Below are positions 948 through 51,549 of a stretch of DNA of 64,000 nucleotides, in pieces. Where the stretch lies: assembly GCF_055900595.2 (NCBI RefSeq), contig NZ_CM148325.1. One strand, 5' to 3'. A model generated the notes under the pieces. That model saw nothing but the letters and a program-made list of their open reading frames with translations, was not told the DNA's origin and ran no database searches. The number at the start of each line of letters is the position of its first letter. The stretch's first letter is position 1. The position numbers and the translations under genes were made by a program.

Positions 948-2309
<1,362 letters not shown>

Positions 2310-2448
2310 AACGTGAGGAAATACCTGGATTTTTCCTGGTTATTTTGCCGCAGGTCAGCGTATCGTGAACATCTTTTCCAGTGTTCAGTATGGTGCCTTG
2401 CACGGTAATTATGTCACTGGTTATTAACCAATTTTTCTTGGGGGATAA

Positions 2449-3588
2449 ATGAGCGCGGGAAGCCCAAAATTCACCGTTCGCCGCATTGCGGCTTTGTCAC
2501 TGGTTTCGCTATGGCTGGCAGGCTGTTCTGACACTTCAAATCCACCGGCACCGGTCAGCTCCGTTAATGGCAATGCGTCTGCAAACACCAATTCTGGTAT
2601 GTTGATTACGCCGCCGCCGAAAATGGGGACGACGTCTACAACGCAGCAACCGCAAATTCAGCCGGTACAGCAGCCACAAATTCAATCTGCACAACAACCG
2701 CAAATCCAGCCAGTGCAGCCAGTAGCTCAGCAGCCGGTACAGATGGAAAACGGACGCATCGTCTACAACCGTCAGTATGGGAACATTCCGAAAGGCAGTT
2801 ATAGCGGCAGTACATACACCGTGAAAAAAGGCGACACACTTTTCTATATCGCCTGGATTACTGGCAATGATTTCCGTGACCTTGCTCAGCGCAACAATAT
2901 TCAGGCACCATACGCGCTGAATGTAGGTCAGACCTTACAGGTGGGTAATGCTTCCGGTACGCCAATCACTGGTGGAAATGCCATTACCCAGGCCGATGCA
3001 GCAGAGCAAGGAGTTGTGATCAAGCCTGCACAAAATTCCACCGTTGCTGTTGCGTCGCAACCGACAATTACGTATTCTGAGTCTTCGGGTGAACAGAGTG
3101 CTAACAAAATGTTGCCGAACAACAAGCCAACTGGGACCACGGTCACAGCGCCTGTAACGGTACCAACAGCAAGCACAACCGAGCCGACTGTCAGCAGTAC
3201 ATCAACCAGTGCGCCTATCTCCACCTGGCGCTGGCCGACTGAGGGCAAAGTGATCGAAACCTTTGGTGCTTCTGAGGGGGGTAACAAGGGGATTGATATC
3301 GCAGGCAGCAAAGGACAGGCAATTATCGCGACCGCAGATGGCCGCGTTGTTTATGCCGGTAACGCGCTGCGCGGCTACGGTAATCTGATTATCATCAAAC
3401 ATAATGATGATTACCTGAGTGCCTACGCCCATAACGACACAATGCTGGTCCGGGAACAACAAGAAGTGAAGGCGGGGCAAAAAATAGCGACTATGGGTAG
3501 CACCGGAACCAGTTCAACACGCTTGCATTTTGAAATTCGTTACAAGGGGAAATCCGTAAACCCGCTGCGCTATTTGCCGCAGCGATAA
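2449..3588 (+). CDS. nlpD: murein hydrolase activator lipoprotein NlpD (LysM + M23 peptidase domains)
   Basis: 379 aa, lipobox LAGC, Q/P-rich tandem repeat, C-terminal M23-like region; sits immediately upstream of rpoS. Confidence 0.93.
3050..3085 (+). promoter_or_regulatory. putative major rpoS promoter inside nlpD (-35 TTGCGT 3050-3055, 17 bp spacer, -10 TATTCT 3073-3078)
   Basis: Hexamers seen in sequence ~566 nt upstream of rpoS ATG, matching the known position of the rpoS promoter within nlpD. Confidence 0.55.
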
Positions 3589-3650
3589 ATCGGCGGAACC
3601 AGGCTTTTGCTTGAATGTTCCGTCAAGGGATCACGGGTAGGAGCCACCTT

Positions 3651-4643
3651 ATGAGTCAGAATACGCTGAAAGTTCATGATTTAAATGAAGATGCGGAATT
3701 TGATGAGAACGGAGTTGAGGTTTTTGACGAAAAGGCCTTAGTAGAAGAGGAACCCAGTGATAACGATTTGGCCGAAGAGGAACTGTTATCGCAAGGGGCC
3801 ACACAGCGTGTGTTGGACGCGACTCAGCTTTACCTTGGTGAGATTGGTTATTCACCACTGTTAACGGCCGAAGAAGAAGTTTATTTTGCGCGTCGCGCAC
3901 TGCGAGGAGATGTTGCCTCCCGCCGCCGGATGATCGAGAGTAACTTGCGTCTGGTGGTAAAAATTGCCCGCCGTTATGGCAATCGTGGTCTGGCTTTGCT
4001 GGATCTTATCGAAGAGGGCAACCTGGGGCTGATCCGCGCGGTAGAGAAGTTTGACCCGGAACGTGGTTTCCGCTTCTCAACATACGCAACCTGGTGGATT
4101 CGCCAGACGATCGAGCGGGCGATTATGAACCAAACCCGTACTATTCGTTTGCCGATTCACATCGTAAAGGAGCTGAACGTTTACCTGCGAACCGCACGTG
4201 AGTTGTCGCATAAACTGGACCACGAACCAAGTGCGGAAGAGATCGCAGAGCAACTGGATAAGCCAGTTGATGACGTCAGCCGTATGCTTCGTCTTAACGA
4301 GCGCATTACCTCGGTGGACACCCCGCTGGGTGGAGATTCCGAAAAAGCGTTGCTGGACATCCTGGCCGATGAAAAAGAAAACGGCCCGGAAGATACCACG
4401 CAAGATGACGATATGAAACAAAGCATCGTCAAATGGCTGTTCGAACTGAACGCCAAACAGCGTGAAGTGCTGGCACGTCGATTCGGTTTGCTGGGGTACG
4501 AAGCGGCAACACTGGAAGATGTAGGTCGTGAAATTGGCCTCACCCGTGAACGTGTTCGCCAGATTCAGGTTGAAGGCCTGCGCCGTTTGCGCGAAATCCT
4601 GCAAACGCAGGGGCTGAATATCGAAGCGCTGTTCCGCGAATAA
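3651..4643 (+). CDS. rpoS: RNA polymerase sigma factor RpoS (sigma-38), full length
   Basis: ORF 3615..4643; start at internal Met ([11 protein letters not shown]...) gives 330 aa; no premature stop; codon 33 is GAG. Confidence 0.95.
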
Positions 4644-4659
4644 GTAAGCATCTGTCAGA

Positions 4660-4694
4660 AAGGCCAGTCTCTTATGAGGCTGGCCTTTTTCTTT
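4660..4694 (+). terminator. rho-independent terminator downstream of rpoS
   Basis: GC stem GGCCAG...CTGGCC followed by T-run (ggccagtctcttatgaggctggccttttt). Confidence 0.7.
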
Positions 4695-4763
4695 TGTATG
4701 GGGAGTTGGTGTGTTTTGTCGCCTGGATAAGACACGTCAGCGTCCCATCCGGCAATCAGCATC

Positions 4764-5204
4764 CTATTTGCTCATCATCTTGCGCACCAGCTGCATAAAC
4801 AGCTCCTGCTCTTCTCCACTCAAACGCCCCAAAAATTCCTCATCCACACTGTCACCAATCGGTATCGCCGCAGCAAGTACCTTTTCTCCTTCGGCAGTCA
4901 GCCAGACAAAGCGTCGCCGCTTATCAGCAGAGTCATGTTCTCGTCTGACTAAGCCACGATTTTCCATTCGTGCCAGCATTTCTGCCAGCGTTGCTTTGGT
5001 GCTGACTGCTGCTTCCATCAGCGCAACCTGTTCGATGCCAGGCTTATCAGCAATGGCGCGCATCACCGCGTACTGCGGTTTGGTCAGGTCAGGTAGCTCG
5101 TGCTGCCAGCGAGATGTGTGCTGCTGAAAAAGCTGTCGTAACTGATGGAACGCTTTATTTCGTAACGCCATGTAAACTCCGGGCAAACTATCTGCCGCTA
5201 TCAT
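4764..5204 (-). CDS. MarR/SlyA-family transcriptional regulator
   Basis: 146 aa ORF with winged-helix MarR-like core; divergent from adjacent decarboxylase operon. Confidence 0.8.
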   Translation of the reverse strand: MIAADSLPGVYMALRNKAFHQLRQLFQQHTSRWQHELPDLTKPQYAVMRAIADKPGIEQVALMEAAVSTKATLAEMLARMENRGLVRREHDSADKRRRFVWLTAEGEKVLAAAIPIGDSVDEEFLGRLSGEEQELFMQLVRKMMSK

Positions 5205-5286
5205 AGCGGTTTTTCAGTGACGCAGGGGATGTTGTTACTTTTCAGTGCTTGCCGCGATGAGAACAGAGGCGTATTTTAATAATAAC

Positions 5287-5300
5287 GTTCGTATACGAAC
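5287..5300. promoter_or_regulatory. perfect 14-bp palindrome GTTCGTATACGAAC, candidate MarR-type operator
   Basis: Seen in sequence in the 113-bp divergent intergenic region, 18 bp upstream of the UbiX-like start codon. Confidence 0.45.
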
Positions 5301-5317
5301 AATTAAGAGAATTAACA

Positions 5318-5911
5318 ATGAGACTGATCGTCGGGATGACAGGGGCCACCGGAGCGCCTCTTGGTGTGGCATTACTGCAAGCGCTGCGGGAGATGCCGAA
5401 TGTCGAGACTCATCTGGTGATGTCGAAGTGGGCGAAAACCACCATTGAACTGGAAACGCTTTACAACGCCCGCGATGTTGCTGCCCTCGCAGACTTCTGC
5501 CATAACCCGGCGGATCAGGCCGCAACCATCTCCTCAGGTTCCTTTCGTACCGACGGCATGATCGTTATTCCGTGCAGTATGAAAACGCTCGCCGGTATCC
5601 GCGCTGGTTACGCCGATGGCCTGGTAGGGCGCGCGGCGGACGTCGTGCTCAAAGAAGGCCGCAAACTGGTGCTGGTGCCGCGTGAAATGCCGCTTAGCAC
5701 CATCCATCTCGAAAATATGCTCGCACTTTCGCGCATGGGCGTGGCGATGGTGCCGCCGATGCCTGCCTTTTATAACCATCCCGAAACGGTAGATGACATT
5801 GTCCACCACGTGGTAGCCCGCGTGCTGGATCAATTTGGCCTCGAACATCCTCACGCCAGGCGCTGGCAAGGATTGCCGCAGGCCCGGAATTTTTCCCAGG
5901 AGAATGAATAA
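5318..5911 (+). CDS. UbiX-family flavin prenyltransferase paralogue (decarboxylase B subunit)
   Basis: 197 aa; MRLIVGMTGATGA flavoprotein motif; first gene of a three-gene operon. Confidence 0.85.
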   Translation: MRLIVGMTGATGAPLGVALLQALREMPNVETHLVMSKWAKTTIELETLYNARDVAALADFCHNPADQAATISSGSFRTDGMIVIPCSMKTLAGIRAGYADGLVGRAADVVLKEGRKLVLVPREMPLSTIHLENMLALSRMGVAMVPPMPAFYNHPETVDDIVHHVVARVLDQFGLEHPHARRWQGLPQARNFSQENE

Positions 5912-7338
5912 TGGCATTTGATGATTTACGCAGCTTTTTACAGGCGCTTGATGACTACGGTCAGTTACTGAAAATCAGTGAAGAAGTGAACGCCGAGCCG
6001 GATCTGGCAGCCGCTGCCAACGCCACTGGGCGTATCGGCGACGGTGCACCGGCGCTGTGGTTTGACAATATTCGCGGCTTTACCGATGCCCGCGTGGCGA
6101 TGAACACTATCGGTTCCTGGCAGAACCACGCGATTTCCCTCGGCCTGCCGCCAAACACCCCGGTTAAAAAACAGATTGATGAGTTTATCCGCCGCTGGGA
6201 TAACTTCCCGATTGCCCCGGAACGCCGCGCTAATCCAGCGTGGGCGCAGAACACCGTCGATGGCGAAGAGATTAACCTGTTCGATATCCTGCCGCTGTTT
6301 CGTTTAAACGATGGCGATGGCGGTTTCTATCTCGACAAAGCCTGCGTGGTTTCCCGCGATCCGCTCGACCCGGATAACTTCGGCAAGCAGAATGTCGGCA
6401 TCTATCGCATGGAAGTGAAGGGTAAGCGTAAGCTCGGCCTGCAACCGGTGCCGATGCACGATATCGCCCTGCATCTGCATAAAGCGGAAGAACGTGGTGA
6501 AGATTTGCCAATTGCCATCACGCTGGGTAACGATCCGATCATCACCCTGATGGGCGCCACCCCGCTGAAATACGATCAATCAGAGTACGAAATGGCTGGC
6601 GCACTACGCGAAAGCCCGTACCCGATCGCCACCGCCCCGCTGACCGGTTTTGATGTGCCGTGGGGCTCGGAGCTGATCCTCGAAGGGGTAATCGAAAGCC
6701 GTAAACGCGAGATTGAAGGGCCGTTCGGTGAATTTACCGGCCACTACTCCGGCGGGCGCAACATGACCGTAGTGCGCATCGATAAAGTCTCTTACCGCAC
6801 CAAACCGATTTTTGAATCGCTCTATCTCGGTATGCCGTGGACCGAAATCGACTATCTGATGGGGCCAGCCACCTGTGTGCCGCTGTATCAGCAACTGAAA
6901 GCCGAGTTCCCGGAAGTGCAGGCGGTGAACGCCATGTACACCCACGGCCTGCTGGCGATTATCTCCACCAAAAAACGCTACGGCGGCTTTGCCCGCGCGG
7001 TGGGCCTGCGTGCGATGACCACGCCGCACGGTCTGGGCTACGTGAAGATGGTGATTATGGTCGATGAAGACGTTGATCCGTTCAACCTGCCGCAGGTGAT
7101 GTGGGCGCTTTCGTCGAAAGTGAACCCGGCAGGGGATCTGGTGCAGTTGCCGAATATGTCAGTACTGGAACTCGACCCTGGCTCAAGCCCGGCGGGGATC
7201 ACCGATAAGCTGATTATCGACGCCACTACGCCTGTCGCCCCGGACAACCGTGGTCACTACAGCCAGCCGGTGGTGGACTTACCGGAAACCAAAGCCTGGG
7301 CTGAAAAACTGACCGCTATGCTGGCCGCACGTAAATAA
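5911..7338 (+). CDS. UbiD-family aromatic acid decarboxylase (C subunit)
   Basis: 475 aa UbiD-like protein; start overlaps upstream stop (ATGA coupling). Confidence 0.85.
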   Translation: MAFDDLRSFLQALDDYGQLLKISEEVNAEPDLAAAANATGRIGDGAPALWFDNIRGFTDARVAMNTIGSWQNHAISLGLPPNTPVKKQIDEFIRRWDNFPIAPERRANPAWAQNTVDGEEINLFDILPLFRLNDGDGGFYLDKACVVSRDPLDPDNFGKQNVGIYRMEVKGKRKLGLQPVPMHDIALHLHKAEERGEDLPIAITLGNDPIITLMGATPLKYDQSEYEMAGALRESPYPIATAPLTGFDVPWGSELILEGVIESRKREIEGPFGEFTGHYSGGRNMTVVRIDKVSYRTKPIFESLYLGMPWTEIDYLMGPATCVPLYQQLKAEFPEVQAVNAMYTHGLLAIISTKKRYGGFARAVGLRAMTTPHGLGYVKMVIMVDEDVDPFNLPQVMWALSSKVNPAGDLVQLPNMSVLELDPGSSPAGITDKLIIDATTPVAPDNRGHYSQPVVDLPETKAWAEKLTAMLAARK

Positions 7339-7348
7339 GGAGAACAAG

Positions 7349-7585
7349 ATGATTTGTCCACGTTGTGCCGATGAACAGATTGAAGTGATGGCGAAATCGC
7401 CGGTGAAAGATGTCTGGACGGTCTACCAGTGCCAGCATTGCCTTTATACCTGGCGCGATACTGAACCGCTACGCCGCACCAGCCGCGAACATTACCCGCA
7501 AGCGTTCCGTATGACTCAAAAAGATATTGATGACGCACCGATGGTGCCGAGCATTCCGCCGCTGCTGGCGGCAGATAAGCGCTAA
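7349..7585 (+). CDS. small decarboxylase subunit with CxxC...CxxC zinc-ribbon (D subunit)
   Basis: 78 aa ORF, CPRC...CQHC, 10 nt after the UbiD-like gene. Confidence 0.7.
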   Translation: MICPRCADEQIEVMAKSPVKDVWTVYQCQHCLYTWRDTEPLRRTSREHYPQAFRMTQKDIDDAPMVPSIPPLLAADKR

Positions 7586-7586
7586 T

Positions 7587-7632
7587 AAAAAAGGGCCGGG
7601 TAGAGGCTTTGCTTTACCCGGCCACGTTATTT
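7587..7632. terminator. bidirectional terminator between decarboxylase operon and pphB
   Basis: A-run, stem GGCCGGGTA...TACCCGGCC, then T-rich tract; flanked by convergent genes. Confidence 0.65.
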
Positions 7633-27253: not shown

Positions 27254-29835
<2,582 letters not shown>

Positions 29836-50711: not shown

Positions 50712-50804
50712 GGTGAGGTGGCCGAGAGGCTGAAGGCGCTCCCCTGCTAAGGGAGTATGCGGTCAAAAGCTGCATCCGGGGTTCGAATCCCCGCCTCACC
50801 GCCA
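50712..50804 (+). tRNA. serV: tRNA-Ser (anticodon GCU)
   Basis: 93 nt with long variable arm, anticodon loop CU-GCU-AA, 3' CCA encoded. Confidence 0.93.
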
Positions 50805-50807
50805 TTT

Positions 50808-50884
50808 GCATCCGTAGCTCAGCTGGATAGAGTACTCGGCTACGAACCGAGCGGTCGGAGGTTCGAATCCTCCCGGATGCACCA
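50808..50884 (+). tRNA. argV: tRNA-Arg (anticodon ACG), copy 1
   Basis: 77 nt GCATCCGTAGCTCAGCTGGATAGAGTACTCGGCTACGAACCGAG...CACCA; 3 nt after serV. Confidence 0.93.
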
Positions 50885-50947
50885 TATTCTACGAAATCTT
50901 CAGCAATGAAGGTGTCGAAGAGGTGGCGGTACTAACCGCAAGCACCA

Positions 50948-51019
50948 GGGAGGATAACGTTGCTTTAGCAACGGCCCGAAGGGCGAGCCGTAAGGCGAGT
51001 AATCCTCCCGGATGCACCA
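50948..51019 (+). other. tRNA-like structured spacer element ending in a copy of the tRNA-Arg 3' end
   Basis: 72 nt: stem GGGAGGA...TCCTCCC, internal hairpins, terminal aatcctcccggatgcacca identical to tRNA-Arg 3' 19 nt. Confidence 0.45.
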
Positions 51020-51083
51020 TCTCTTACTTGATACGGCTTTAGTAGCGGTATCAAAAAATCTGCAGTAAAGTAAGTTTCCCGAT

Positions 51084-51160
51084 GCATCCGTAGCTCAGCT
51101 GGATAGAGTACTCGGCTACGAACCGAGCGGTCGGAGGTTCGAATCCTCCCGGATGCACCA
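51084..51160 (+). tRNA. argY: tRNA-Arg (anticodon ACG), copy 2
   Basis: 77 nt, identical to copy 1. Confidence 0.92.
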
Positions 51161-51262
51161 TATTCTCCGTAATCATCAGTGATGATGGTTAAGATGGATT
51201 TTCTTATTTGATATGGCTTTAGTAGCGGTATCAATATCAGCAGTAAAATAAGTTTTCCCGAT

Positions 51263-51339
51263 GCATCCGTAGCTCAGCTGGATAGAGTACTCGGCTACGA
51301 ACCGAGCGGTCGGAGGTTCGAATCCTCCCGGATGCACCA
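51263..51339 (+). tRNA. argZ: tRNA-Arg (anticodon ACG), copy 3
   Basis: 77 nt, identical to copy 1. Confidence 0.92.
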
Positions 51340-51549
51340 TATTCTCCGTAACCTTCAGCAATGAACGTATCGAAGAGGTAGCGGTACTAACCGCAGGCAC
51401 CATCTCCTCCAAAAAATCCCCTTCAAAAATATTTCATTTCTAAATAACTATTTTATCCATTTCCTGAATATTCTTCTCCTTCGCCATCAGCGACAAAATC
51501 AAGCAATTACGCTAAAGTAGCGTCATATTTTTCGACTTGCGAGAAGACC

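Follow-up and report, generated by a model that had tools for sequence, protein, structure and literature searches.

The Q/P-rich linker repeat of nlpD and its rare length alleles in Escherichia coli

In E. coli, the outer-membrane lipoprotein NlpD activates AmiC, a septal amidase, and promotes the separation of daughter cells (Tsang et al., 2017, PMC5533458). The repeat considered here is already known and dates, in the literature, from the first sequencing of nlpD: the paper of Ichikawa et al. (1994, J Bacteriol 176:1630) has "unusual amino acid repeat sequences" in its title, and Tidhar et al. (2009, PMC2736372), citing that paper, refer to a P/Q-rich repeat region. The linker that carries it is likewise already treated as disordered, both NlpD linkers having been predicted to be so by Tsang et al. 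(2017, PMC5533458), who use the term dLytM for the type of domain that follows the second of them.

The gene described below lies in a window of 64,000 nucleotides (the whole stretch of DNA that was analysed) from contig NZ_CM148325.1 of NCBI RefSeq assembly GCF_055900595.2. Its product resembles NlpD of E. coli K-12, which we take to be UniProt P0ADA3: it is the same gene in the same position, with the same layout of three repeat units plus one and the same length of 379 aa. It differs from the K-12 protein in that the second unit ends in SA rather than AT and in that the residue before the first unit is T rather than A. Our additions to what is known are small and consist of an allele census and an explanation of the variants by short exact matches. 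The literature searched, including searches with the peptide string, contained no report of nlpD length alleles, which may be reported elsewhere. What emerges is a nearly fixed repeat length, with rare variants that would be explained by a 9-nt mini-tandem and by two copies of an 11-nt exact match at a distance of 48 nt.

The nlpD gene and its coding repeat

The sequence-only reading named the gene nlpD and placed a Q/P-rich linker between the lipoprotein anchor and the LysM domain, and both calls are well supported. The NCBIfam NlpD equivalog (NF008123) matches at 679.5 bits, against a cut-off of 311, with residues 4-379 aligned to model positions 1-365 of 365. A lipobox and both LysM and Peptidase_M23 domains are present (Table 1), and the gene order on the + strand is truD-surE-pcm-nlpD-rpoS, for which the pcm-nlpD-rpoS annotation was checked in the closest genome. 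C26 and A24 are invariant in an alignment of 32 species. The metal-ligand motifs of the M23 family are HxxxD and HxH; read from the sequence, the active site is degenerate here, with N279-K-G-I-D283 replacing the former and R358-L-H360 the latter. All the features of NlpD that can be assessed from sequence were found.

RefSeq (PGAP) starts nlpD at a TTG at 2494, giving 364 aa, and not at the ATG at 2449, which gives 379 aa. With the later start, the signal peptide would be without its basic n-region. An ATG occurs at the upstream position in 80 of 80 species, with a conserved N-terminal peptide; at the downstream position, TTG is found in 29 of the 80 and TTA in 31. There is also a Shine-Dalgarno-like GGGGG run upstream of the ATG. 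The 364-aa annotation looks wrong on this comparison.

Table 1. Coordinates of nlpD, its domains and the elements of its repeat (positions in the window).
Feature	Position	Strand	Details
nlpD	2449-3588	+	379 aa + stop; murein hydrolase (AmiC) activator lipoprotein; NCBIfam equivalog
Lipobox L-A-G-C	2515-2526	+	aa 23-26; read from translation; Cys26 is the lipid-anchored first mature residue
Repeat unit 1	2644-2667	+	CAGCAACCGCAAATTCAGCCGGTA, QQPQIQPV; exactly the unit quoted by the sequence-only reading
11-nt exact match, unit 1 copy	2647-2657	+	CAACCGCAAAT; putative crossover site of the 48-nt deletion/duplication
Repeat unit 2	2668-2691	+	QQPQIQSA; 18/24 nt identical to unit 1
Repeat unit 3	2692-2715	+	QQPQIQPV; 20/24 nt identical to unit 1
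11-nt exact match, unit 3 copy	2695-2705	+	CAACCGCAAAT
Two-copy 9-nt tandem	2707-2724	+	CAGCCAGTG CAGCCAGTA (QPV QPV); at the junction of units 3 and 4; rare strains have 1 or 3 copies
Repeat unit 4, degenerate	2716-2739	+	QPVAQQPV; 14/24 nt identical to unit 1
LysM peptidoglycan-binding domain	2815-2943	+	aa 123-165; Pfam PF01476, E = 2.6e-12
Degenerate LytM / Peptidase_M23 domain	3283-3564	+	aa 279-372; Pfam PF01551, E = 4.6e-33

Tandem Repeats Finder reports one array in nlpD, at 2644-2719, with a period of 24, 3.2 copies, 69% matches and a score of 82. In register, the array extends over 2644-2739. The repeat was earlier described as four imperfect copies within 2636-2760; it is real, although that span is slightly generous and the copies are better counted as three clear 24-nt units and a degenerate fourth. 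The units are contiguous and head-to-tail, without spacers, and the 24-mers on either side of the array match unit 1 at just 4-8 of 24 positions. Codon 66 of the 379-aa reading frame starts at position 2644, so that the array is in frame and encodes residues 66-97, between the lipid-anchored Cys26 and LysM; 69% of these residues are Q or P. The score of 82 was reached by none of 300 whole-gene codon shuffles (maximum 49) and by none of 300 shuffles of codons within the Q/P-rich segment, aa 58-102 (maximum 66). Only the tRNA-Arg cluster scores higher among the tandem repeats of the window.

Four codons differ between units 1 and 3, all of them synonymously, and units 1 and 2 differ by three synonymous and two nonsynonymous codon changes. 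From these differences the duplication is best read as an old one, in which the peptide was maintained while the DNA drifted at synonymous sites. In most E. coli the second unit is QQPQIQAT, as opposed to the QQPQIQSA of the window. No two units share an exact match longer than the 11-nt CAACCGCAAAT, which has just two copies in the window, and adjacent units share exact matches of at most 8 bases. The two copies of the QPV mini-tandem match at 8 of 9 nt. Also present is a 12-nt repeat, CAGCCGGTACAG, at 2659 and 2731.

A search of Rfam over 1800-5300 on both strands found no family in or near the repeat, the sub-threshold chance matches all lying past rpoS, and a scan for promoters and terminators over 2250-3700 gave matches at or below the shuffle expectation. 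An opposite-strand open reading frame at 2636-2839 is a mechanical call only. The second linker of the protein, between LysM and dLytM (aa 166-278, 2944-3282), is a low-complexity segment rich in T, S, A and G; tandem repeats were not detected in it, and its conservation across genera exceeds that of the Q/P repeat.

Length alleles among E. coli genomes

The sequence-only reading had expected linker length to vary between strains and proposed comparing repeat number among them. The comparison was made on 5,420 of 5,426 complete E. coli genomes, those in which the 5' part of nlpD was matched over its full length. About 98.7% of the 5,420 have the length of the window and about 69 (1.3%) differ, in a census made by BLAST ranking rather than allele-by-allele extraction, which 3-6 nt indels and SNP-diverged -72 alleles could escape. 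Length therefore does vary between strains, but rarely, and never by one 24-nt unit. Queries of 70 and 88 nt hid indels of ±9 nt, as megablast split these alleles into two perfect pieces, which were re-joined; the ±9 and +48 alleles were counted with real alleles of 250-310 nt as queries. The -48 allele was counted with a 61-nt junction query, of which native alleles cover less than 80%.

The length alleles observed are -48, +48, -9 and +9 nt, all multiples of 3 and all inside coding sequence. Searches with synthetic alleles exposed lengths of 252, 270 and 309 nt, against a native 261. A synthetic one-unit allele, a hybrid of units 1 and 3, has matches in real genomes that are 100% identical from end to end. 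The -48 allele, with one unit left, occurs in 57 genomes, of which 42 match the junction query at 100% and 15 at 98.4%, in rough agreement with indirect counts of 61-64 from other searches. The +48 allele, with five units, was found in a single genome, the baboon isolate PapRG-04-4, as an exact 48-nt duplication. Seven genomes, identical over 252 nt, have the -9 allele, in which the two CAGCCAGTR (QPV) copies of most strains are reduced to one. The +9 allele, with three QPV, is present in four genomes on two backgrounds, reading GTG-GTG-GTA in Rb-50 and GTA-GTA-GTA in the three other strains.

Synthetic two-unit and four-unit alleles matched no genome among the 5,420 better than a gapped native-length alignment; therefore single-unit, 24-nt changes of length are absent from this set. 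Clean units number one (57 genomes), three (about 5,362) or five (one genome), in steps of two units, or 48 nt. The 12-nt repeat noted above would predict a -72 allele as well; a synthetic version of it found no single-piece match, a result that SNP-diverged versions could escape.

The junctions point to how these alleles may have formed. All -48 alleles read CAGCAACCGCAAAT joined to CCAGCCAGTG, which is the head of unit 1 followed by the tail of unit 3, and in the +48 allele the additional unit has CAACAACCGCAAAT joined to TCAGCCGGTG, the head of unit 3 followed by the tail of unit 1. The two alleles are thus reciprocal in form, as an exchange within the 11-nt CAACCGCAAAT would make them. Changes of 24 nt would be missing because adjacent units share no more than 8 exact bases. 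In the mechanism we propose, drift of the units would have left short exact matches only, of 11 nt between units 1 and 3 and of 8/9 nt in the QPV mini-tandem. At these, replication would now and then slip, or an unequal exchange take place, with in-frame -48, +48, -9 and +9 alleles as the outcome, which are tolerated yet stay rare. We infer slippage or unequal exchange at short homology from the junctions of natural alleles. In E. coli, the slippage of replication at direct repeats, with deletion or duplication at short homologies, was reportedly studied by Bzymek and Lovett in 2001. The reciprocal -48 and +48 alleles within an 11-nt match 48 nt apart, and the ±9 alleles of a 9-nt tandem, are like that process; the difference is that the events here are reconstructed from natural alleles alone.

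The flanking SNPs of each -48 allele fit the native-length allele of its own lineage. In O157:H7 EC4115 (-48) the allele is 1 site from that of O157:H7 DEC4E, which is native in length, and 7-8 sites from other -48 alleles. ECCWS199 (-48) is 2 sites from the K-12-type allele, AMSHJX01 and 2013C-3342 (both -48) are 1-2 sites from the background of the -9 allele, and OkiPb01695 (-48) has a SNP background apart from the rest. Because the -48 alleles sit on different native-lineage SNP backgrounds, this pattern implies that the 48-nt deletion arose at least four independent times.

One of these origins lies within O157:H7, in which EC4115, TW14359 and SS17 are deleted and DEC4E is native. Also carrying the allele are O157:H7 SS52, JEONG-1266 and RM6067W and about 20 O157-looking genomes; DEC4E, TR01 and PV15-279 have the native length. 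The O157:H7 carriers presumably correspond to clade 8, the spinach-outbreak lineage. The -48 allele may serve as a simple lineage marker within O157:H7, and the literature searched made no mention of nlpD length alleles in connection with O157 clade 8 strains. Among the carriers are EC4115 and TW14359, from the 2006 spinach outbreak, and the super-shedders SS17 and SS52. We regard it as quite unlikely that the recurrent shortening of the NlpD tether by 16 residues is other than neutral; were it so, the shorter tether could alter the reach of outer-membrane NlpD to peptidoglycan for AmiC activation, and could affect cell separation, envelope robustness or surface exposure.

Six of the 5,426 complete genomes have no real match to the 5' part of nlpD. 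They include E. coli O55:H7 DEC5A, in which the sole match is a spurious one of 49 nt in flhA. The six could be explained by loss of the nlpD/rpoS region or by faulty assembly.

The linker across species and its likely role

Among 80 species of Enterobacteriaceae, the clean QQPQIQxx repeat occurs in no genus other than Escherichia. There are three units in E. whittamii and in two further Escherichia species, and four clean ones in E. albertii. Citrobacter, Salmonella, Enterobacter and others have a degenerate (T)PQIQPVQ...QP.QIQPV stretch, and there are separate expansions elsewhere, with QPV four times in Kosakonia cowanii and three units of 12 residues in isolate RIT693. The repeat segment is the least conserved part of NlpD, although P68, Q71, Q85 and Q90 are nearly invariant across genera in the 32-species alignment. 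From the lipid-anchored Cys to LysM, the linker measures 83-107 aa in the 80 species (median 93, SD 3.8). The E. coli -48 and +48 linkers, at 81 and 113 aa, fall just outside this range, the former being shorter than that of any species sampled.

We consider it highly probable that the array is the known P/Q-rich linker repeat of NlpD, most likely a structureless tether, which arose by an old duplication and changes length by slippage at short matches. The reading as a flexible tether is favoured because length is conserved while sequence is poorly conserved, and because changes of 16 residues are tolerated. Tethering is most likely the function, which we infer rather than observe. The linker would be extended, setting how far LysM and dLytM hang below the outer membrane, and its length and Q/P/V character would matter more than its exact sequence. 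LpoA and LpoB, outer-membrane lipoprotein regulators, have disordered linkers, and TonB has a proline-rich spacer; in each, as here, a low-complexity segment containing proline leads from a membrane anchor to a domain that reaches peptidoglycan. Their linkers are without an 8-residue Q/P tandem repeat, and the likeness is one of layout, with no claim of a sequence relationship. An AlphaFold2 model from the 32-sequence alignment has a mean pLDDT of 34.8, low even in the M23 domain, and says nothing on disorder; relatives in the PDB (DipM, EnvC) cover residues 235-379 only, with no structure over the linker. The natural allelic series of one, three and five units offers a way of asking whether the regulation of AmiC by NlpD depends on tether length.

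Alternatively, QQPQIQxx might be a sequence-specific motif for weak septal targeting or partner binding, with copy number tuning the strength of binding. The amino-acid sequence is indeed kept across units despite synonymous divergence, the four nearly invariant residues lie in the region, and a fusion of NlpD residues 1-115 shows weak midcell enrichment (Tsang et al., 2017, PMC5533458). The same study found, however, that LysM alone suffices for septal localisation, and NlpD of Yersinia, which is without the P/Q-rich repeat region, is nevertheless required for cells to separate (Tidhar et al., 2009, PMC2736372). Moreover, the units are degenerate outside Escherichia, and the 57 E. coli genomes that keep a single unit include successful O157:H7 lineages. 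We therefore think a binding motif rather improbable. A further step removed is the idea of a contingency locus, in which rapid change of repeat number would switch or diversify NlpD as a phase- or antigen-variable protein. Length alleles do exist, the 48-nt deletion has at least four origins, and NlpD of H. influenzae has been reported at the cell surface (cited by Tsang et al., 2017, PMC5533458). Against this, every indel is a multiple of 3, which allows no on/off switching, and 98.7% of genomes have one length; the units are 75-83% identical in DNA with a longest exact match of 11 nt, whereas contingency loci have perfect repeats. The defining shift of frame or promoter spacing of a phase-variable simple sequence repeat switch is absent, the indels being of 9 and 48 nt and within the coding sequence, and we hold such a locus to be very improbable.

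The two remaining explanations concern whether there is a coding duplication at all. The segment is compositionally biased, at 69% Q+P, and a repeat could in principle be a by-product of that composition without true duplication. Shuffling codons within the segment alone refutes this, with a highest score of 66 against 82, and the fourth clean unit of E. albertii and the five units of one E. coli strain indicate that whole units duplicate; chance is thus scarcely credible as the origin. Finally, units of 24 nt have a superficial look of a CRISPR-like or other non-coding array that merely appears inside an open reading frame, a resemblance that the sequence-only reading had raised and set aside in favour of in-frame coding sequence. 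That judgement is borne out. The units are directly adjacent, leaving no room for spacers; the reading frame, including its ATG in 80 of 80 species, is conserved; the NlpD equivalog matches end to end; the Rfam search of both strands gave no overlapping family; and in the closest annotated genome the 64 kb equivalent to the window have no annotated cas genes. In-frame conservation refutes the CRISPR-like reading, to which we give next to no weight, and the linker tether remains the reading that we prefer.

Origin and other features of the window

Just 17 of 5,421 E. coli genomes match the window at 99% identity or more over nlpD positions 1-452, the rest being at about 97%, and the closest species-representative protein is that of Escherichia whittamii, at 99% amino-acid identity. 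From these identities the window seems to come from an uncommon Escherichia lineage or to include a recombinant segment. The whole window is 99.9-100% identical to E. coli Z0117EC0005, a dog isolate from Korea.

The window has some further features of note, several of them differences from that isolate. Between rpoS and a MarR-family gene (4764-5204), at about 4688-4690, the window is without the 710-bp IS200/IS605 tnpA insertion of Z0117EC0005. The rpoS-mutS variable region that follows (4764-7600) encodes the MarR-type regulator and a hydroxyarylic acid decarboxylase B/C/D cluster (UbiX/UbiD-like), an arrangement that we take to be that of O157:H7-type strains rather than of K-12. The gene ascF (PTS cellobiose/arbutin/salicin IIBC; 28687-29835, - strand) encodes 382 aa, compared with 485 aa in Z0117EC0005, owing to a 309-nt in-frame deletion flanked by 14-nt direct repeats, with its junction near 29098-29111; the deletion probably inactivates the transporter. 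The tRNA-Ser / tRNA-Arg(ACG) cluster at 50712-51400 has three tRNA-Arg(ACG) genes, as against four in Z0117EC0005, and is the strongest tandem repeat of the window, with a period of 179 and a score of 600.
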